From the NCBI GenBank assembly GCA_000934665.2, contig JYFJ02000730.1, positions 1 through 64,000 of the forward strand: a DNA stretch of 64,000 bases, given 5' to 3'. How positions within the stretch are numbered: the first letter of the stretch is position 1; each line of letters begins with the position of its first letter. A program made the position numbers and the translations under genes. Origin of the DNA: Catajapyx aquilonaris. Lineage: Eukaryota. Shown one piece after another: positions 29,819-46,613 of the stretch. The notes under the pieces are model-generated. The model saw only the letters and a program-made list of their open reading frames with translations. It was not told the DNA's origin and searched no databases.

Positions 29819-30622
29819 TCAGCTTGCAAACCCCCCGGAAGGCAATTTCAAATGTCTTCCACATCCTGACGGCCTTCCTGGCGTCACCGGGTGCGGGATT
29901 TCTGCGAGATGATCTCTGAGCGCCATGGATTGCGACGGATCACGAGCAGCATACCACCCGTGATTTACCATCCAAGGCGTGTTTCGGATGGGTCCTTCAG
30001 CCCTGTGTTTGTCTGCATGCGTAACGGTGACTATGGCCTGCCCTTTGACCTTCCCTTTCCAGCTGGGTCTGCCTATTTCGCTGCACTTGTTGCACCTGGC
30101 ACTTAGTTGACTCCCACCGCCATGCAGCCGTGGTTCCAGGAACAACCGCGGGTTGGTCCGAAAGTCATAGTCGCAACAAAAATCACATCCAGAGCCAGGT
30201 TCTGAAATATGTGCAGAATGTAACCGCACGTAATTTGCAAACTATTAGTAAATGTGCGTACCTTCCTGATACGCAGCTTTGCATTCTTCGGGATGTTCTT
30301 CTCGGAACCGCCTGACTTCCGCTAGATCCGTCCTGCTCAGCGGTGCCAGTCCATCGTTGTCCCGTGTGGCAGCCAACCAGTCGTACCCCAGTCGGATCGT
30401 CGACTCTCCCAGATCAGGGGCGGCCCCTATTCCCCCATCCTCAGACGACAAATAGGTGGAGCCGGACAATCCATCTTCATACGACTGATATGGTCCAAGA
30501 AGTCCAGACGACTTTGCCGCTGCGAAAGTCTTCTCTGCAAACGGTCTCGAGAAGATCACACGTCTTAATTTCTTCGCTGGAGAATTATTCTCCAGCTTTT
30601 CGAACGTTTTCGAAGACGCCAT
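29819..30622 (-). CDS. Two-exon orphan ORF (~247 aa; 30622-30262, 30201-29819) with CDFC...CNKC pair
   Basis: CAAG-ATGG start context, 60-nt GTACGC...TTTCAG intron joins two ORFs in frame, AATAAA ~55 nt past the stop. Confidence 0.5.
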
Positions 30623-30629
30623 CTTGGAA

Positions 30630-31680
30630 TATATCGATTCGAACAAATAAATCGATATTTTGTGAAAGCATATCGATACCGAAGTGCACCGACCGTAGAT
30701 ATCGATATTTTTCGAGACATATCGACATTTTTCGAGACATATCGACATAATTATTTGCAAACATATCGACATTGTTCGAGACATCGATATTTTTCGAGAC
30801 ATATCAACATAATTATTTGCAAACCTATCGACATTGTTCGAGACACATCGATATTTTTCGAGACATATCGACATATTTGCAAACCTATCGATATATTTGC
30901 AAACATATCGACATTTTTCGAGACAGATCGATATATTTGCAAACATATCGATATTTTTCGAGACATATCAATATATTTGCAAACATATCGACATTTTTCG
31001 AGACAGATCGATATTTTTCGAGACGGATCGACATTGTTCGAGACATATCGATATATTTGCAAACATATCGACATTTTTCGAGACAGATCGATATTTTTCG
31101 AGACATACAGACATAATTATTTGCAAACCTATCGACATTGTTCGAGACATATCGATATATTTGCAAACATATCGACATTTTTCGAGACAGATCGATATAT
31201 TTGCAAACATATCGATATTTTTCGAGACATATCAATATATTTGCAAACATATCGACATTTTTCGAGACATAACGATATTTTTCGAGACGGATCGACATTG
31301 TTCGAGACATATCGATATATTTGCGAACATATCGACATTTTTCGAGACAGATCGATATTTTTCGAGACATATCGACATAATTATTTGCAAACCTATCGAC
31401 ATTGTTCGAGACATCGATATTGTTCGAGACAGATCGACATTGTTCGAGACATATTGATATTTTTCGAGACATATCCATATATTTGCAAAAATATCGACAT
31501 TTTTCGAGACAGATCGATATTTTTCGAGACAGATCAATATTTTTCGAGAAATCGATATATTTGCACACATATCGATAATTTTCGACAACTTCGATATTAT
31601 CTGCAAACATCGATACTTAAGTGGAACAAATGTGGATATCGTTATTTTAGACACATCGATATTTTGCAAAACATATGGAT
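30630..31680. repeat. Complex satellite of ~20-24-bp ATCGA-based subunits
   Basis: Interleaved ATCGATATTTTTCGAGAC, ATCGACATTGTTCGAGAC and ATCGATATATTTGCAAAC units; marker GACGGATCG recurs 264 bp apart (31022, 31286). Confidence 0.92.
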
Positions 31681-32278
31681 ATTGAATTGCTTCAAAATTG
31701 GCGCCAATTGATAACCACAATATTAATCATCACCCTGTAATGTCATTTTTTTAAAAGGTTAATAATAAAGCACCACGTTTTTAATAAAGAATCAACCTCT
31801 TTATAGTCATAAATACTTCAAGTTCCGTTTACAACCAACATACTGATGCTCAGCGCAAAATACTCATTCGATAAGATAATAAGCACTTTTTTTCTGAATA
31901 CCTTTTTTTTTTTTTACAATGACACAATGACTGAAATACTTGGCTGCCCCTTCCCAAAAAATTACAAAAATTAAATTTCTGTAGCACTCTCTTAAAAATA
32001 TAACTCTTTCATAGACATAATTGTTAACTCTAATGCACTTGGATTCATAACCAACTGTTTGCATGGTCTTTGCGGGAAGATTCCTTAGCCTGCACCCATC
32101 AGGCCAAAATAGGTTTAAAAAAAAGAATAAAAAAAAGTGAAATCACGCACTGCACACACTCGCTAAATAATTATAAACAAATGAGAAGGACACAAGAGAA
32201 TTGGTTGAGCGAGAGAGTGGGAATGGTGATAACAAAGAGCACTTTGACATGTCGTCGTCGTCTTGTCCGCCAGATATC

Positions 32279-35200
32279 TCAAGAGATGAGAGTAGTGGCC
32301 ACTAGCAGGTGGAGGGCAACCAGATACGCATACACCAGGTACCGGATCCTCCACCAACGCCCAGGTCGTCCGCAGTACCATCTGGAATAATTCATGTCTC
32401 AATGTCATCAAATGAACACGACCTTTCCCATAAAACGAGTACTCAGCTAAAAAGAGACGAAACAGGCCTGAATATATGACACATTCACGCATATGCCCGA
32501 TTGCACCGACCGAAATTACCGAACCGATAGCTCCAAATGGATCGTTAGGAGCCATTTTAACATGTGCTAACGATCTGCTAGGAGCCATCGAATCGGTAAT
32601 TTCGTTCGTGCAATCGGGCAATAATATTAAAAATATCAGTCCACGTGAGGATTTGCTGAATTTTCTCGACTTTCACATATGACCACTTAATTTACTGCTA
32701 TAGTTTTGATACGAATTATTTCAAAACTGCAAATAGAAGCTCAAATGTTCAGCTCGTTCAATCAACTGCAGGAGAAAGGCAAAGAAACGTGAACAAACAT
32801 CACGGCGGCAAATGGCTCAGCAAATATTTTAAATACCTGAATAATTAACCTATGGCAACAATCACTGAATTATTCAGTGATTGTTGTCGTATGTTATTTA
32901 TTAACATATGGCAACAATACCTGAATAATTCAGTGATTGTTGTCGTATGTTAATTATTAACATATGGCAACAATACCTGAATAATTAACATGGCAACAAT
33001 CCTTGAATAATTAACATATGGCAGCAATATTTGAATAATTAGACACACGTTCATTATTCAATATTATTAAAAATATTGTTAAAGATAATGATGAGGGAAG
33101 AATTTGCTTTTAAACAAGCATTTCTTTCGCTTTTCGTTATCGTTTAAATATTTTAAAAAGTAGGGAAAGATTCGCAAAAGCTCGAATACGTATAAATTAG
33201 ATCTTGATTAAAAGCTTGCTTTAGCCTTTGAAGAAAAAAAAAGAGTGCTTTAAAAATCACAAAACGGATAAGAAGCGTCACATACCTGAGATTGCACGGC
33301 ACAATTTATTTATTTTCTTTTGGCTCCACAGGGAGGTGGGATTCAGTTTAAACGTGCATAATCCTTGGGGTGCTAGAAAAAAATGGAGAAAAAAAATGAA
33401 ATAATAACGAAGTTTTTAAAAATGTGGCCAACATTATGAACTCTCTGCATCATGCTAAATACAATTATTTGAAAACTGAAACCCACCTTGGAAACATGCA
33501 GTACACACACACAAAAAAAAGGAATGAACAACATTTAGTGCAAAATTCAATAAAGAGGCGGAGGGGGGGGGAAAAAAATGCTCACCTTTTACCCCAGAGC
33601 CAGTTGTAAAGAACGGTCCCGGTGCTTTGCGCATTTCGAGCTGAAAATAAACGGAAATTGCTCAAGTACATTACAAACATTGCACGCATAATTTATAGAC
33701 TAAACTTGCAACGGTTTCTTTTCGGATAATCGTTACTCTTGATTGTCCAACTCTCGTTATAATCGAGGTTCTAAGCTTTCACAATGTTGGTGAAACCCGG
33801 GACTCACAGAGGGTGTAGTCCGCATGCATGAGAGCTTCCGGATCGACATCTCTAGGCGCCATCATCCTAGTCCGGCTGGAAGTCCTGAGGGGCGGAGAGT
33901 GGGACTGCGGGGAATAGGAGAGGCGACGAGACTTCAGCTCTCTCTGGACCCTCTGCCGCTCTTCCTGCTCCGCCCGAAGCTGCACGTCCAGGTGGTAGTT
34001 AAGCTGCTGCAATTCCTCCAGTCTGCATGAAAACCGGAAGATTAAGCAAACGACAAGTACACTATGCGAGGTTAACTCACTTCTCCTCAAGCGAAGCCAG
34101 CTCTGAGGGTGACTCCCGGCCTTCAGTCTGCTGCGGCGGCACTCTCTGCCGCAGCTCCATGCTCCGTTTGATTGCGCTGGACAGCTTAATTTGCAGTGTG
34201 TCCCGCTCCTCCAGCAGCCGAGTAACCTCCAGGACTAGCTCCTCACACTTCAGATCCCGCTGGTGTAGAGTCGCCATCACTTGTTCCAGCTCCGAGCGAA
34301 GACCATCGGGATTGGACATCCGGGACGATCGCACATGCTGTTCTTCCAAAGCCATATTCTCCCGTTCCAGCACATGGCTGCGTTTCTCCAACGTGGAATT
34401 CTCCAGCTCCAGTTCTCGGCTTCGACCTTCCACTACATCCAGGTTCTGCTGCAGGAGAAGGCAGTGCTTGTCCGACTCCGACATTTTCTCCAGAACCTCT
34501 TCCAACAGTGCACTCTTCTCATCCAACTTGGATCGCAATTCGGACGCCTCGCTGGATAAGTCAATCTGTGATGTCAGGTTCGACTCAAGACGAGCCATTC
34601 GGGCACGGAGACTCTCATTCTCACGCTCCAAAGCCTGAAGCCTCGCATTAGGCTTCTCCATCTGGACTTGAAGGTCCTCGCTTTCAATCCGCAGTTGCTC
34701 ATTCTCATCTCGGAGTCTCTCAAGTTCTTCTCGTAACGACGTTCCAGCTCCTTGTGATGATTCAACCAGCGCTTGCAATCTCGTAACGTCAGCTTCAAGA
34801 CCCTGAAGCGACTCCAAGCGTGACTGAAGCACTTCGTTATCCGCAGATTGCGCCTCTTTGTTCCGAATCTGCGCTCGTAAGTCCTCATTTTCAAGCTTAA
34901 GCGCTTCAAGTTGGCTGCTCATATCGCCCATGCTATTTAATTTCTCCAGTGCCGCCTGGAGTGCAGCCACTTCCTGCTGATATGCCTGGAGCTCACTTCT
35001 AGTCGACTGCTCCAGAATTCTCAACTGCTCTAGTTCCCCGTCAGCCCCATGCGGCCTAGACAATCTCTCAACTTCCGTCTGAAGAACCTGATTCTCACTG
35101 CGAAGAAATTCGCTTTCACTAGTCGAGACCTCGTACTTCTCCTCCATTTCCGTGCAGGTCTCGTATAGCGAGTCGTACTCTGCCTTCAGACTCTGATAAG

Positions 35201-38200
35201 CGTTTTCCGCTTCCTGGATTCTCGATTCCGCATCCTGGACTGAACCCGAGTGCGACTTTAGAGAGTCTGCTTCGGCCTGGAGGGTGTACAGATGACTTCG
35301 GGTCTCATCTAGCGTGGCCTCCAAGTCTGACTTTTGCACCTTTAGGTTCTCCAGTAGCGACTTAAGCTTTTCAACTTTCTTGAGCAGCATTCCTTTCTCT
35401 TCCTCCAGGGCGGACGTACGCTCTGTAAGAGACGCACGTTCAGAAGACAGCATGTGAAGTTGCTCCTGCACCTGCTGCGATGCTTGTTCCGCAATGCAGG
35501 CTCGCATGTTCGCTTCCTCCAGCACATTTCCCGTGCCCTGAACCTGAACTTCGATGCGATCCCGCAATCTTTGGCACTCACGTTCGGCTTCACCGCACTT
35601 TGCAGTCACTTGTTGGTACTCCAAATCCAGTTGTTGTAGCAACTGCTGAAGTGACTGGCGTTTGCTGGTGACTTCCTCGATTTGTTTCGTCAACCGATTA
35701 CATTCCTCGACTTTGGCGTAACACTCACGGTTTGCTTCCTCCAGGCGATCCAGCCATTCCTGTTGTTCCTGTTGAAGGCGCCGACACTCTTTCTCGGCTA
35801 TGGATGCCCGGACCCGTACTTCTTCCAGGGCATTTCGTGTTTCAGCCTCACTCTCCCGTTGTTCACTCCGTTCACTGGATAACAGAGCCAGTTTCTCCCT
35901 CGCCTCCTTCAGATTTAAGTCTTGCGATTCTTTCGCTTCCAGGAATAATTCTTCAGCGTGATGCATCGTGTCTAGTTGTTCAAGAAGACCAACACGTTCG
36001 CTGGATAGCTGCGTTACCTGGCTTCTCAACTCTTGACACTCTTCATCAGCTCTGGAAGCCAGCTGCTTTGCCTCCTCCAGAGCATCCATGTCCTCCAGAC
36101 GATTGCTGGACAACATGGACAACTGCTCCTTAAGCTGTTCGTTCGCCTTCGCTGCTTCTTCTAGTGTCGACTGGTGCCCTTGGTTCCTTGTAGTCAACTC
36201 ATCCACAGATATCTGGAGTGTCTGCCGCTCTTGTTCGACATTGGATAGTCGGGTCGTCACTTCGTTCACACATTCCTGAAGCGACTGGCGTTCTCGTTCA
36301 ACGCTAGATAAAGATGCGGACATTTCGTCTATAGTCTGCTGCAGCAACTTGCATTCATGCTCGGTGTTGGAACTATGCATGTTTGATTCCTCCAGAGCAT
36401 TCTTAGCTAACGATTCCGCAGCTTCCAGAGAGGCGATCCGCTCAAAAAGTAGCTGCCTTTCCTGAGAAAACTGTGCCATCTCTTCCCGAAGCCTTTGGCA
36501 ATCTTGTTCCGCACTGGAGGCATGCTCTGCGGAAGCCTCCAGTGCAACCAGGCGTTCGGTGAAGGCTTGACGTTCGATAGACAACTGCGACACCTGATGT
36601 TTCAACTCCTCGTTAGCCTCTTCGAATCCATTCCTTTCCATCTCGAGCGATTCCAAACGCTGCTGGAGCAACTGTCTTTCTTCTTCTGGGCCGCCCAGAC
36701 TCTGCACCTGAGCCATTAAGGCGTCCTTTTGGTCCTTGAACTGCTTCAGCTTCTGCAGCATCTTCCCACCTTTGACTTTGGACACATGCAGCTCTTTTTC
36801 CAACTCAGCCTTTTCGCTCTCAAGTCGTTGCTTCTCGGCTTCCCATGCCAACTTGTCATTCTCCATTTCCGTAGCTGCTTCAGCCGGTGCGCCTTCGACA
36901 TCCACTTCCCATCCCCATCCTTCAGTGCCCCACTCCGAAGCTTCATTGGTGTGAGACGCAGACGCACCCACGTGTCTGGCAACCTCCACACTGCTGCTGG
37001 ACAACTCGTCGACTCTACTGGACAACTCCAGTTTGCTAGTGGACAACTCCTGAATTTGATCGGACAGCTCCTGTTTGACGGCGGACAGCTCCTCGACTTG
37101 GCTGAACAGTAGATCAGCCTTTGTCTTCATCTCCCGATATTCCGTTGCCATCTGCTTCAGTTCCTCCTCCTTCAGCTTCAGCTCTTCAAACAGATCTGAA
37201 CGCTCACTCTCAAACTCATCTCGTGCCGACTTCAGCTCCTCTTGCTTCTGCCGCAGCTGCTCGGATAAATCCACGTTTGCGGCTTCAAACATGGAACGAG
37301 TGGCTTGCAGTTCTTCGTCTTTCAAGCTCAGCTCCTTGGACACACTGTCGTTACTCTCCATCTGGGACGTCATCACCTGGTTCAATTCGTTGGACATCCT
37401 CGCCCTTTCATGCTCCAACTCTTCTGACCTCCGCTGCACCTCCGTCTCTGTATAACTGAGCTCCTGCAGCACTTGATCCAGTTTATCGTCCTTCACCTTC
37501 AGCTCGGCAGAGAGTCTGGCAACTTCCGCTTCAAGCTGTTGGCCGGAATGAACTTCCTGGCTTCTCAGCGTCGCCAACGCCGTTAAGGCTTCAAACCGAG
37601 ACCGCAAATCCTGAAGTTCACGCTCTTCCTCTTCCAGTTTCGATGCAAGCGTTTCATTTTGCAATTTGCTGACGTCCGATTCGCTAGTCACGGCTTTAAT
37701 CTCCTCTCTCAAAGCCTCCTCTTCGATATGCTGCATTTCCAAAGCCAGTTCATTCTCACTATTCTTCGTACACAACATTAAAATTTGCGACTCTTTCTCC
37801 TTCAAATCAGCGGCCATGCTTTCACGCTCCGCTCGCAAAGTTTGCAACTCGTCCACCATACGCTGCAAATGTTCCGACTCGCTTCCCTGCTGGGTGCGTA
37901 ACAATTTCAATTCGTCCTCCTTCTCCTCAAACTTTCGAACTAGTTTTTCAAAGTTTGTGGTAACTGCATATGCTACCGCAGTTTTCTCATCTTTTTCAGC
38001 AACGGCTTGCAAGCGTGCTTCATTTGCATGCTCCAAATCGCCTGCCAGACTTTCTGAGGTAATACGCATTTGTTCGTACTGTTGCCGCAGCAAAGTGACC
38101 TCCTGTTCCTTAGCTGCGATGATGGTGTTCGCTTCTTCCATTTCCGCCGCCTTCTGCTCTAAAGATGCCTGCAGGGAGATGCGTTCAGAACGTATTGATT

Positions 38201-41200
38201 CAACTTCCGCGTCCTTCTCCTGGGCAGAGGCAACCACACTTTCGCAATGACTCTTGAGCGAAGCCATTCGCTCGTCTCGAAGTTGCAGTTCCCCAGACAA
38301 AGTCTCGTATCGTCCCCTGAAGTCAGTTAGTTCGTTGAATATGCCTTCGAATTTCCCACGTGTCGAATTGAGCTCGTTGGACATGCCTTCCAAATGATTC
38401 CGAAGAGCATGAATCTCGTCATTCCGGAGCTTCAGTTCGCCTGATAGCGATGCGACTGCGCCTGCCAATTCATCCTCCTTTTTCTTCAGATCTTCAGACA
38501 GAGAAGCATTGGCTTGTCCTGCTTTGTCCAGCGAATCGTTCAGTCGTGCGACTTCTCCAGACAAAGAAACGTTCTCCTCCGACAAGTGCGTGTACTTCTC
38601 CAGCAATGTCATTTTGTCTGAATCCAAGAAAGCCACCTGTTCTCCAGCAGTCCTAAGGTCCGACTCCAGCTGCTCCACCTGAAGCTGAAGACGTCCCGAT
38701 TCATCCAGAAGTGACCTCTCCGCTTCGTGCCTCCTGCGCATTTCCTCCTCCAGCATTCCAGTACGTTCTAGACTCTGCGAAAGCTGATCCTGCAGTGAGT
38801 CTAGCTCATTCCGAAGGCTTCTCTTAGCCTTCTCGGCTTCAGACAACGTATGCCTTGATGACTCTAGTTCTGCGGTTAATTCGGATATGTTCTGCTTTGC
38901 GCAATTCAGAGAATCCTGCGTAGACCTGCAATTAGAATAAGTCGTTAACAACTAATTCTGTAATCGAACGACTCCGATAGACTCACCTGAGCTTCGACCG
39001 TAGTTGATTCTCTCCTGATTTGACCATTTGCAGCTCCTCCTTGAACATTGCTTCCGAGTCGGACATGTTCATTTTGTCTCTCCTGGCTTCCTCCAGCTGC
39101 GACATGAGGACTGACATGTTGTTTTCCAGTTCAGCCGCAGCCGCATCGGACTTAGACAGGCTCTCCTCTAAGCTCATGTTCTTTTCTCTGGCGTGCTCCA
39201 GATCAGCCTCCAGAGCATCTATCACAGCCTCGCCTTCCTGTACCTTCACCTCCAGAGCCTGCCGTTGGCCTGACACTTTCTCCAGAAGCTGCTTTGTGTC
39301 GTCCAGAATGTTGCTGGATTCCATTAACTTGGAATATTCTTCGTCCAGAACCGACTTGGAGGTTTCCAATTCAGCAATTTTGCTTTCTCGTAACGACACG
39401 GATTCGGCCAGCTCCCTGTTTCGGATTTCCAGGTGATCCCTGGATTCCAGCAACTCTCTGTACTTATCCTCTAACGATGCCATGGATTCTGTCAACTCCT
39501 TATTCCGGTTCTCCATCGCCAGCTGTTGTTCCTCTCTCACGTCCATCAGTCGTCCACGTTCCTCCAGCACATTCATGGATTCGGCCAACTCTCTATTCTT
39601 GCTCTCCATGATCTGCATTGCCTGCTCCAAGGCTTCTCTGGAATCCAGCGCTTCCCTCCGTTGGTCCTCCAGTGACGACAATGACTCGGCCAACTCCCGG
39701 TTTCTGTTCTCCAGGATTTGTATCGCCTTCTGATGTTCCTGGAACTCCCGCTCTTGTATGTCCGCTTGTTGCTTGTACTCCTCGAGTGATCTGGACAGTT
39801 CGTGCGTAACCTGATCTTGACCATCTCTCGCTGACTTCAACTCCTCCTGGAGAGAAGCCACTTCCTTCTCCAGTTCCCCCACCCTTTCCTGCTTCTTCTT
39901 CAAATTTCCAGCCATCTTCTTGGAAGGCTTCCCCTGAGACGGCTGAGACTTTGCCTTTTCCAGCTCCTCCTCCAGTGCGCTGATCCTGGAAGCCGTTTCA
40001 GCGCTGGCCTCCTCCAGCCTAGCTCTCTGGTCCTCCAGGTCCAGTATGCAGTCGTCTCTGTCGCCCAGCATCTGCTTGAGTCTCGCCACTTCTTCCTCGC
40101 TCTCCTTCTCGACGCCCTTTCCTCTCAATTCCTCCTTCATCGCATCCATTTGCCGATCCATGTCGTCCTTCAGCTCCTCCAACTCGACCAGTTTTAGCTC
40201 CAGACCAATCTTGGCCTGCCTGCTCTCCTCCAGGGATTTCTGCAGGACGTCAACCTGATCGTGGGCGTCCTCCAGTTTTCGCTTCTTATCCGCCATTCCT
40301 GAAAAACACATGTGCTGTAATGTGTGTAGCGAATCGACATATTCAGAGCCACTTTTTCAAAGGCATGGATTCGCATTGATGAGCGATGGGGCGGAAGTAA
40401 CAATGGATCGCCCCCAAACAATTCATTTCATAGCAGAGCGAATCGCTCACATGTAAACGCGGCCCGGGAGGATGACGACAATTCCGACGAGTTAAAACCG
40501 TACTTTATTTTTACTGTCCACCGCTCGTACCTTCAAGTAGATCCAACTTCTGCTTCTCCAGCAAGGATATCATTCTGACGTGGTTGTCCAGGTCGTCCGC
40601 ATTCTGCTTGCTCTTCTCCTCTAATTCCTTAACCTGTTCTTTCCACCTCGCTTCAGACGCTAAAACATTGAAAACGTTGGATAAATCTCTCGGAATGAAC
40701 GCCATCGGCATTTAATTCGATTCACAGTTAGGAAGCCATTTTGAAGACCTGTCTACAGGTTCCAAATTTTTCTTTTTTACGGGATCATTTGGAAAAGTAA
40801 ATCCAACAAAGCACCAGGAAAAAAGGAAACAACCTGGGTGCAGGTGCCGACAAGTTCCGAGGCAACCTGCACTCGGGTTTAAAGAGAGCAACAAAAGCAT
40901 AAAAAGTCCGCAACAAAGCCCATATTTTTTTGCCATGCACTACAAGAATCCAACGGGAACAGCCTCAAATTCCCCAGCAGGTTATTACCGGATTTGAAAA
41001 GTGTTTTTTTTTGCTTCCTACCTTTCATTTCATCAAAGTCTACCAGATGTAACTGCAGATTACCTTTCTCCTCTTCCAGTTCGGCTATACGGTTATGCAA
41101 TTCCATTATTTGTTCCTCAGAGCCCAAGTTCTGCGGACAAATTTTTTTTTGAAAATGTGTCTGCGGGTTTCAACTACGTCTCGCTTCACCTTATGCAGGT

Positions 41201-42682
41201 CTGAGAGTTGCTTCTGAAGGTTCTTGATTTTGTTCTGGCTCTGAGCCTTCACCTTAATCATCTGCTTGTTGAGTTCGTCCAGCTGGTGCGTCAGCTCCTT
41301 GACTTTTCCAGATTCCTGACCCGAATCCCCTTTGCTAATTCGTCCCATCTCCTCCTGAAGCCTAACGACCTTTTCCTGCAGTTCCGCATTCCTGGTGCTG
41401 AGCTCAAACCGAGTCTGTTCTAGTTTCCGTCCGTTCTCCTCCAGCTGGGCCAGCCGCCTGCTCTTTTCCTGGAGCTCCGTGTTAATCCGTGATTTCTCCT
41501 CCTTCCAGGAAGCCTCCATCGTCACAAAGTTCTGCTGCATGGCCCTCATCTCCTCTCGGGTTGCATCCAGTGTGTCCAGTGTGGTTTTGCCCCGCATCGA
41601 CATATCCTGCGACATCAAAGTTATAGCCTGGGTACGAGCATCTATCACCGAGTCTTTCTCCTTCAGGTTTTCCTGTAATTGAAATATATATAGCTTCCGA
41701 ACGTCTCATAGAAATTGGCAAGTATCAGACCTGCAGGTCCATTATGGTGCTCTCAAGTTGCAATATGTTGTTGTTAAGCTCCATGATGCGATTGTCCTTC
41801 TGAACCATCTGCGCATACATCTCCTGGAACTGGGGGCTGTCCAGATCAGGTTGCGATGCGGCAGTGGGAGTGGCCGAAGTGGGTTTGGGTCGTGTGGCAT
41901 TGTCTCGCATCTCGGATATGACTCGATCCCTCTCGTCGATTTGAATCCGCAACTGCTCCACCTTCGACTGGATGTCACGCTGACTCTCACCCATTTCGCG
42001 TTCCCTCTGCTCTATCTTAATCCTTTAAAAAGTGCAAAAAAAACCAATTTATTTAGTACCCTGCAGAGTACGGACCCATATTTACTTTCTATAAAAAAAT
42101 TAATGCTTGTCAACCGTGCGATTCACTACACCGTTACATAATTACCTGTTCTCTTCCAGCTGTTTCTTGAGGAGAATCATCTTCCCTTTGCTGCCTTTGA
42201 CCTCTTTGTCCGTGGCTCCAGGGCCTGGAGTCTCCTCAACTGGCATGTCCTCCTTCTTCTCCAGCTCAGACACTTTGCTCGACAGTTGGCTCACTTTTGC
42301 CTTGTGCTTCAGTTTTATTTTGGACAACCTCGTTGCATATTCCTTCAGAGAGAAAGAAAAAAGGTGGAACGAGAGAACTGGTCAAATAATATCACATGTT
42401 TGTGCAGGAAAATATTATAGATATCTTTGAATATTCGACGTCAGGACATCCGAGAGCACATGCGAAGTAAATCACCTGCACTTCCTTCTCCTTCCCTTCC
42501 AGTTTGCTCTCGTTTTCTCGTATCATTTCCTTCAGGCTGGAAATGAGGTTCTGCTGCTCCGCAAACCTTTCCTTCAGCTCGTCCACCTCCTGCCCGCTGC
42601 TTCCTCCAGCCCTCGCCTCCTCCTTCCGCGGGTCCCCATCCTCCGTCTCCCCTTCCTCCTGTCCTCCACTGCCCCACCACAT
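32279..42682 (-). CDS. lva: Giant coiled-coil golgin, lava lamp / giantin (GOLGB1)-like, about 11-12 coding exons with two alternative last exons
   Basis: Start MWWGSGG (42682); lva-like segment ENLKEKDSVIDARTQAITLMSQD and IAELEEEKGNLQL; ~4.85-kb coiled-coil exon (~38926-34081); LHQRDLKCEELVLEVTRLLEERDTLQ; penultimate exon 33640-33586 (NWLWGK); last exon 33372-33348 or 32381-32279. Confidence 0.85.
32836..33040. repeat. Degenerate AT-rich tandem repeat
   Basis: Repeated TACCTGAATAATTAACATATGGCAACAA with inverted sub-blocks. Confidence 0.7.
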
Positions 42683-43231
42683 CTTCAAAATCTGCAATCA
42701 ATAATATTCATAATTACAATTTCGTAAAATGCACATTGCATCGAACCGAGTATTTTCAACTTATTAATTAGTGCTTGGCATCTCGTTATTATAATTTCCA
42801 AAAATATGGCCAGTGAGAGAGAATAGATTCATCACAGCCACGAGTTGATTATAATTGGAGAAATATCAGCAGTCACATGATCGATGACGATGAAACAAGG
42901 TTCCCATGCGATAGGACAAGTGATGTCATTTGGGGGCCTGCCTCATTACCTCATTACTGGTTTTTAAATTGTACAAACGAAGCAAAATAATTTAAAAAAT
43001 GGGGGAAGGATTCATCAAATGTCATCTTCGTCGTAACCGGTAGTAACCATGTAGTTACTAATAATTAACTATGGTTACGACGAAAAATTTGATTTACTCC
43101 TTCCCCTTGTATCGGAAAAATTGCGTTACCCTACATCTGCACAAGCATATTCCTTGATTAGTTAATGATGAACCTTAATTACTGATATTTGAAGGGCATA
43201 AACTTTTATTTTGCTAATTTATTTTTGGCAA

Positions 43232-45632: not shown

Positions 45633-46613
45633 GGGTGGTAACATTGGGGATCATCATTTTTTTTTTCTTTCTTTACAGAAAAGTAAACATGCAAAGATGA
45701 GCTGTCACTTTGATATGATAATGTTGCATCGTTTACAAGACAAATCTGGTTGGTAGATGTGCTGTGCTGGTTTGAAAGATTAAAACGCACTGACAATTAT
45801 TGACCTTCAGACCCATGTGTAATGCAACGTACGGTGATTCAATGCAGCACTTGCAAAAAAAAAAAGGCTTGAGTCGAATCTGGCCTTGAAAAATTACTGT
45901 CCGGTTTATTGCACTTGTGGACTCACGGACAATGGTATCTGTGATAACTTCGGCTTTGTCGTTATCGTTTTAAGTTCTAAGCAGGGAAAAACTCGGCTGT
46001 GTGTGGCCATATTAATCAGAAAGATGAATGTGATACCTTTTTTCGTACATTTCAGCCATTGTGACCGTTTGGACATCCTGGTGAGCAAGGAGCCGCCAAC
46101 CCGTCGCCAGAATGCGAAGCTGCGTGTGGACCAGTTGAAGTATGACGCTCGCCACCTCCAGGCATCGCTGGACAATCTTCGCTGGAGGAGGCAAGAGCGG
46201 GAGAGGGAGCAACGAGAGAGGGAGCAGCTGCTGGAGCACAAGTTTGGCTCGGAACAGCAGGACACTTCCATCATAATTGATCAAAGCCTCCAGCATCACA
46301 CCGCCCTGCAGGTGAAAACCGTAACACCCAATCTCGTAGCACATTTGATCCGCATGTTACATTACAGAATGCCCATCAAGGACTGGACGACATGTTGGGT
46401 TCCGGTTCGTCCGCCCTAGCCAACATGCGGGAGCAGAGAATGACCCTGAAGGGAGCCCACCGCCGCATGATGGACGTGGCCAATGTTCTCGGACTCAGCA
46501 ACACCACAATGAGGCTCATTGAACGCAGGGCATACCAGGACAAATATGTGCTCTTAGGAGGAGTGATCGTCACCTGCATCGTCATGTTCCTAGTCGTCAA
46601 ATATCTCGCGTGA
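44452..46613 (+). CDS. GOSR2: Golgi SNAP receptor complex member 2 (membrin), 3 exons (44452-44591, 46056-46311, 46368-46613)
   Basis: MEALYHQTN, CDRLDILVSKEPPTRRQNAKLRVDQLKYD, QRMTLKGAHRRMMDVANVLGLSNTTMRLIERRAYQDK, C-terminal TM. Confidence 0.96.

Follow-up and report, generated by a model that had tools for sequence, protein, structure and literature searches.

The minus strand of a 64,000-nucleotide (nt) stretch of the Catajapyx aquilonaris genome (contig JYFJ02000730.1, positions 1 to 64,000; hereafter the window) carries a long coiled-coil gene of the lava-lamp type of golgins, and the 3′ end of this gene appears to be laid out for two different C-termini. In the RNA, an 87-nt exon that supplies the last eight codons of the protein is included and spliced on to a further, last exon, and this mRNA encodes a soluble end. 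The last exon opens, at the acceptor in use, with a 34-codon frame that would be reached in phase if the 87-nt exon were left out and that has the make-up of a golgin membrane anchor. Skipping of the 87-nt exon thus probably yields a tail-anchored isoform, a form predicted here from the sequence.

The 3′ end of the gene was read base by base on the minus strand (Table 1). The 215-nt exon that follows the large coiled-coil exon aligns with the KLSEL...YTLSR region of relatives and is itself followed by a 55-nt exon common to both predicted protein forms, which reads RNAQSTGTVLYNWLWGK (...NWLWGK) and ends with the AG of a split codon, that is, in phase 2. The original prediction had this exon (33640-33586) end in phase 2 at AG/GTGAG, which is confirmed by direct reading, and a metagenomic relative (locus L008) has the same exon in the same phase (...LLNWLWGK, aaaag/gtaaat). 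Two acceptors had been proposed to continue it in frame, a proximal one at 33372, giving STPRIMHV followed by AATAAA, and a distal one at 32381, and all of the coordinates and peptides are correct. At 33372 the split codon becomes Ser (AG+C), followed by TPRIMHV and a TAA at 33350-33348, which makes eight codons, with two overlapping AATAAA hexamers at 33314-33305 inside the same exon. At 32381 it becomes Arg (AG+A), followed by WYCGRPGRWWRIRYLVYAYLVALHLLVATTLIS and a TGA at 32281-32279. Overlooked at the time was the strong donor at 33286/33285, 19 nt past the second AATAAA, which makes the proximal exon an internal exon of 87 nt. As 87 is divisible by three and the two acceptors take the same phase, skipping of the exon would join ...NWLWGK in frame to the last exon.

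The RNA evidence comes from run X1, the sole public run that matches positions 32100-40400 (0.37 of sampled words), for which no run recorded as RNA is listed; the kind of X1 is not on record, and its contigs were aligned to positions 30500-43000 of the window. One contig of 2118 nt, with a depth of 16.6, consists of 35282-34081, 34022-33808, 33640-33586, 33372-33286 and 32381-31825 in succession and differs from the window in one letter over 2116 nt. Each removed piece has GT..AG ends, and the joints 34081>34022, 33808>33640, 33586>33372 and 33286>32381 all read CT..AC on the plus strand. The contig is taken as cDNA because the introns are exactly removed and are otherwise uncovered in X1, except for repeats that run on into unlike sequence. 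Since one contig spans 33286>32381, the last exon belongs to the transcripts of the golgin gene and the acceptor at 32381 is used. The alternative last exons that had been proposed are therefore both present in RNA of the gene, but a simple choice between them does not describe the locus, because the proximal exon has a donor of its own and is spliced across the 904-nt intron to the distal exon. Nor does the distal exon come from a different transcript, the circumstance that had been set against the proposal at the outset, as the one contig spans the golgin exons and the distal exon alike. An intron that lies past a conserved stop codon is unusual, and a simple explanation of this arrangement would be a second isoform in which the last exon is translated.

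The distal frame had been described as a basic stretch followed by a membrane span with Tyr-x4-His; both can be read from the sequence, the span as a predicted one, and the frame carries the published marks of tail-anchored golgins. The basic stretch together with the preceding split-codon Arg contains five Arg and no acidic residue, and the Tyr (codon 32326-32324) and the His (codon 32311-32309) of the span stand in Tyr-x4-His spacing, the His being residue 11 of 20. Open frames of this length are not rare in the window, where 1127 of the 5485 stops in all six frames are preceded by at least 34 open codons, and by our own estimate the chance of a 34-codon open frame alone is about 0.2 in random sequence. 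The final 20 residues are uncharged and hydrophobic in 5 of the 1127 frames, three of these five hydrophobic tails also have at least four Lys or Arg and no Asp or Glu in the preceding 14 residues, and among these only the anchor frame has Y-x4-H. The 34-codon open frame is by itself weak evidence; the tail as a whole, judged by its residues, is not. It starts exactly at the used acceptor, in the phase left by the 55-nt exon. Its G+C fraction (GC) over 103 nt is 0.573, compared with 0.51-0.60 in the coding exons and 0.34 in the introns, and drops to 0.361 over the remainder of the exon, with 0.435 in the first 108 nt past the stop and 0.338 thereafter. The best of 24736 Pfam models for the tail is CASP_C at positions 226-246 of 252, which were taken as the membrane span of the model (E 0.077-0.084, 12.6-12.8 bits, well under the cut-off of 28), and none of four control hydrophobic tails of the window matches CASP_C. 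Codon-usage log-odds per codon are −0.10 in the frame versus −0.40 and −0.59 in the other frames, from a model that was trained on coiled-coil exons and is uninformative for a membrane span. Overall, the distal frame looks like genuine coding sequence for an anchor of the golgin type.

Table 1. Features at the 3′ end of the golgin gene, by position in the window (a slash within lettered sequence marks a splice site).
Feature	Position	Strand	Description
Large coiled-coil exon	34081..38951	-	Open frame of 1624 aa; donor GGAGAA/gtgagt at 34081, used in the X1 contig
215-nt exon	33808..34022	-	...LEELQQLNYHLDVQLRAEQEERQ...DPEALMHADYTL; both borders are X1 contig joints
55-nt exon	33586..33640	-	Acceptor ttattttcag/CTCGAA, donor TAAAAG/gtgagc; contig joints
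Intronic arm of inverted repeat	33473..33488	-	16 nt, 15/16 complementary to 33334-33349 in the 87-nt exon
87-nt exon	33286..33372	-	Acceptor tttttttctag/C at 33372; donor TCTCAG/gtatgt at 33286/33285
Intron	32382..33285	-	904 nt, GC 0.34; separates the 87-nt exon from the last exon
Last exon	31825..32381	-	557 nt up to the end of the contig, identical to the window
Predicted tail anchor	32279..32381	-	34 codons and TGA, in the phase given by the 55-nt exon if the 87-nt exon is skipped
Basic Trp-rich stretch WYCGRPGRWWRIR	32342..32380	-	13 residues, adjoins the membrane span
Predicted membrane span YLVYAYLVALHLLVATTLIS	32282..32341	-	20 residues, no charge, mean Kyte-Doolittle 1.8; stop directly after
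Continuation past the TGA	32171..32278	-	35 open codons in the same frame, DIWRTRRRRHVKVLFVITIPTLSLNQFSCVLLICL, then TAA

Giantin (GOLGB1), golgin-84 (GOLGA5) and CASP each have a long cytoplasmic coiled coil with a single span at the extreme C-terminus, as would the predicted skipped form. The likeness extends to the central His and the Tyr of the span, the basic stretch next to the membrane and the near absence of lumenal residues; it is a likeness of described features. The Y-x4-H spacing is found in the spans of all three proteins. A passage of PMC6633398 gives the unusual central His as common to giantin, golgin-84 and CASP and has all three bind TRC40, and the relevant part of PMC5840792 describes their spans as similar in sequence and the conserved Tyr of the span as needed for the export of CASP from the endoplasmic reticulum. 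Unlike in these proteins, the anchor in the window gene would be optional and lies behind a stop-bearing exon, in a form that is predicted from the sequence. The CUX1/CASP locus is alike in that one gene decides by the choice of its 3′ exons whether its product has a golgin-type anchor or not. The products of CUX1/CASP differ in large domains, one being a homeodomain factor and the other a golgin, whereas here the same golgin would differ only in its last 8 or 34 residues, and the switch, unlike that of CUX1/CASP, would be one 87-nt exon.

In the proposed mechanism, inclusion of the 87-nt exon, as seen in the RNA, is the default and would give a peripheral golgin ending in STPRIMHV, and skipping would join ...NWLWGK to the 34 codons of the last exon. 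The skipped form would then end with the basic Trp-rich stretch and the 20-residue span with its Tyr and central His, up to the stop codon. Such a protein would be a tail-anchored golgin. It would presumably enter the membrane post-translationally through TRC40/GET, the pathway shown for the three mammalian proteins, and be fixed in the membranes of the Golgi. With less confidence, the 87-nt exon may in addition act as a terminal exon, through cleavage at the two AATAAA that precede its donor by 19 nt, and its 3′ splice site may be masked by a stem of 33488-33473 and 33349-33334, which would promote skipping. The exonic arm of this stem starts at the stop of the 87-nt exon. Between the two arms lie the branch region with the pyrimidine tract, the 3′ splice site and all eight codons. 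The partner of the intronic arm is unique in the 64 kb (chance mean 0.09 at up to two mismatches), and the stem is kept in the minimum free energy and centroid folds; the whole fold has a z of −1.36, and 19 of 200 shuffles fold as well. As a regulator of splicing, the intron-exon stem is a candidate and to be taken as a lead only.

Two further observations concern the sequence on either side of the anchor frame. Past the TGA, the continuation of the frame holds a second basic and hydrophobic segment, one of just three such tails in the 1127 frames, with a GC of 0.435 and no relevant Pfam match; it could reflect stop-codon readthrough, a duplication remnant or chance. The 904-nt intron upstream holds a tandem array at 32812-33041, with a 56-nt unit that is itself palindromic, six copies of a 36-nt core and arms of up to 64 nt that are 84% complementary. 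It also holds an inverted repeat at 32494-32620 that resembles a miniature inverted-repeat transposable element, with 42-nt arms (81% complementary) that are flanked by a perfect 13-nt inverted repeat. The core of this element is covered by X1 contigs at a depth of about 141 which continue into unlike sequence, and copies elsewhere are therefore highly represented in run X1.

The identification of the gene as a lava-lamp-type golgin, which the original prediction had made, is supported by comparison with insect proteins. As read from the sequence, the gene runs on the minus strand from about 42697 to at least 31825, with large exon frames of 457 aa (38983-40356) and 1624 aa (34081-38951) and smaller exons that reach up to the start near 42697. 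Lava lamp (Lva) of Drosophila and the 'protein lava lamp-like' of other insects are giant coiled-coil Golgi proteins, and the predicted protein of the window gene shares with Lva orthologues its great length and almost entirely coiled-coil structure. In an exhaustive profile search with phmmer, the last 1200 residues of the big exon as query matched 40 proteins, none below 1e-10, and most of the matches align to query residues ~1125-1185, a single block near the end of the big exon. This block (...LHQRDLKCEELVLEVTRLLEERDTLQIKLS...) sits in the final ~75 residues of the exon, and the pattern LHQRD.RC.EL....LLEERDTLQL.LS is common to the window gene and 30-odd arthropod sequences. A word search restricted to the block gave P0046 and P0047 as the sole two matches among 123 candidates, from Lutzomyia and Phlebotomus, respectively, both bearing the name 'protein lava lamp-like', which is an automatic NCBI name. 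By tblastn, P0046 (Lutzomyia longipalpis) matches the window with residues 197-337 at 41723-41337 (E 1e-20, 40% over 141 residues) and with residues 1999-2064 at 34358-34164 (E 1e-7, 55% over 66 residues). The two matches, one in the N-terminal part and one in the C-terminal block, are collinear, which supports the reading of the window gene as a lava-lamp-type golgin in a comparison that was made with the sand fly proteins. The two sand fly proteins differ from the window gene in their ends, ...KQMSWFWSNT or ...SSK, which are without the STP tail.

The Pfam matches of the gene are all of coiled-coil types and sub-threshold, with none above the cut-off, and a Pfam scan of six relatives likewise gave no match above the cut-off. 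A word-index search with big-exon residues 1150-1624 yielded one weak match among 7999 scored candidates, and a protein atlas search and a PDB profile search returned generic coiled-coil clusters and generic coiled coils only, respectively.

The soluble end encoded by the 87-nt exon is conserved among relatives. In the window, NWLWGK joined to STPRIMHV gives the tail ...NW[LI]WGxSTP[KR]. Six of the 40 phmmer matches reach a true C-terminus, and all six are found again within 12 matches of a profile search, giving 12 distinct complete ends that come from the beetles Gonioctena, Cryptolaemus, Exocentrus and Popillia, the crab Scylla and further contigs. All 12, retrieved with a profile that was built from STP-tail proteins, read ...W[LI]xGxSTP[KR] followed by 4-5 residues. 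Seven of them close with V(M/V/L)H(V/I/M), like the IMHV of the window, and the other five are of a beetle type that closes with NDT, NDS, NEL or NNV. With STP[KR] in 12/12 ends, the 87-nt exon is therefore, by this comparison, the source of an old, selected C-terminus and not a throw-away poison exon. The earlier suggestion that the C-terminal Val serves in binding to PDZ domains or GRASP fares less well; since a C-terminal Val is found in only 5/12 relatives, and five end in NDT, NDS, NEL or NNV, this idea is weak. Two distant relatives, P0036 and P0041 (both transcript-derived, P0041 from 'merc'), are without NWLWG and end in ...PVKHL and ...AVMHL, respectively. Since both keep an x-H-hydrophobic terminus in the absence of NWLWG, this terminus may be the part of the soluble tail that has been conserved the longest.

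Metagenomic sequences add further relatives at the DNA level. The search pattern was matched by 169 stretches, and nine loci were confirmed as relatives. All nine end before a possible anchor exon, with L001-L006 stopping in a large intron and L008 ending ~600 nt past the NWLWGK exon. In L009 (1364-1639) one exon spans what corresponds to both the 215-nt and the 55-nt exon, and the frame ends ...SSGLLGWLWGY without an STP tail and without a GT donor at that point, which constitutes a third type of C-terminus in the family. No isoform pairs were found among the relatives, where nine of ten clusters consist of one protein only. The hydrophobic ends of P0009, P0010, P0019, P0028 and P0031 were considered as anchors and rejected, as they begin at exon ends and represent intron read-through.

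Several results weigh against an anchored isoform, and some of them favour a last exon that is purely 3′ untranslated region (UTR), with a single soluble protein ending in STPRIMHV and an anchor-like frame that arose by chance or is a decaying relic. In the sole RNA form observed, the frame stops at the TAA of the 87-nt exon, upstream of the anchor frame, which places the latter in the 3′ UTR. The junction 33586>32381 is absent from the five contig joints of X1, which speaks neither for nor against it, since contigs keep the major form and drop rare variants. The splice signals of the 87-nt exon are strong, with a long pyrimidine tract and a good donor, and the tract of the acceptor at 32381 is poor, so that skipping would be a minor or regulated choice. 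Among relatives, each of the 12 complete tails is of the soluble kind, and a membrane span joined to the NWLWG exon is found in none of the 40 phmmer matches and none of the 12 complete ends, all from gene callers that halt as soon as the frame meets a stop. The ends of two sand fly proteins and of one adelgid protein differ from the STP tail. A 34-codon frame is not rare, given the many stops of the window that follow one, and the CASP_C match is at noise level, with control tails reaching E 0.14-0.27 with unrelated families. Set against a purely untranslated exon is the combination, once in 1127 frames, of the phase at a used acceptor, five Arg without an acidic residue, an uncharged 20-residue span and Tyr-x4-His, together with a coding-like GC that falls just after the frame and a best-scoring model that is itself a golgin membrane span. 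Moreover, insects and a crab have the soluble tail in common, and a relic of that age would be unlikely to have stayed intact without selection. A last exon without any coding role is on balance doubtful, though it deserves to be kept in mind.

A choice between two last exons made by polyadenylation, with the proximal exon always terminal and the distal exon reached only from 33586, would fit the position of the AATAAA pair, which precedes the 3′ border of the proximal exon by 19-28 nt, a normal cleavage distance, and contigs cannot show RNA ends. As a sole mechanism it is contradicted by the contig that joins 33286 to 32381 over a 904-nt GT..AG intron, and we consider it very improbable in that form; the proximal poly(A) site may be used in part of the transcripts. 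Equally little probability attaches to a distal exon that belongs to another transcript or gene, or to a contig that arose as an assembly chimera or from a processed copy in the DNA. In favour of these readings, X1 has no entry that marks it as RNA, one contig only carries the joints, and an in-frame ATG at 32395-32393 could start a separate frame of 38 codons. Yet four introns are removed exactly at GT..AG borders with a single differing letter over the 2116 nt, the absence of intron coverage save for repeats is the pattern of cDNA, and downstream of 31825 there is only a simple tandem repeat. A tail-anchored isoform made by skipping of the 87-nt exon is thus weighed here as the probable reading.

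This isoform would bear on the relationship of Lva to giantin. To our knowledge, the main objection to equating the two is that Lva is without a membrane span. The identity of Lva as the insect giantin is disputed in print: it was proposed as a giantin homologue by Munro 2011, as cited in PMC4523617, and is stated to be one in a passage of PMC4707255, and against this Barlow et al. report, in the passage concerned, no giantin homologue in Drosophila (PMC5840792), and the title of PMC2169433 treats Drosophila Lva as a peripheral protein. No Lva isoform with a membrane span is described in the literature found, in a search that lay outside the isoform annotations of FlyBase and RefSeq. Arthropod lava lamp might have kept an ancestral giantin-type anchor as a facultative last exon masked by the 87-nt exon, which would point to an ancient link with giantin, but we put this forward tentatively and regard it as rather unlikely. 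If it holds, an anchor exon of the giantin type, conserved and in frame in an orthologue of lva, would decide how Lva relates to giantin: the two would be true orthologues, and the giantin lineage would go back beyond the chordates, before the split of arthropods and chordates.

If the anchored isoform exists, one golgin would toggle between a peripheral and an integral membrane state by a single exon choice, with the intron-exon stem at the 3′ splice site and the poly(A) signal next to the donor as possible modulators of that choice. Lva, which serves fly cell biology as the standard 'peripheral' marker of the Golgi, may then also have an integral isoform, and such an isoform would bear on the coupling of Golgi membranes to dynein by Lva.

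The surroundings of the golgin gene include a simple repeat at 30245-31726, just downstream of the last exon and built on ATATCGAT...CTCGAAAAA. Several frames of 240-380 aa are open across this repeat on both strands, and their Pfam matches are no more than noise below threshold. On the other side, an exon frame at 46281-46613 (plus strand) encodes a V-SNARE_C domain (PF12352, E 1.5e-17) and a hydrophobic end. A synteny link to this neighbouring SNARE gene through the UniRef name of Popillia P0053 was considered and dropped, as P0053 is without a SNARE domain. The Golgi-type SNARE gene stands head to head with the golgin gene, ~3.5 kb from the first exon of the latter.

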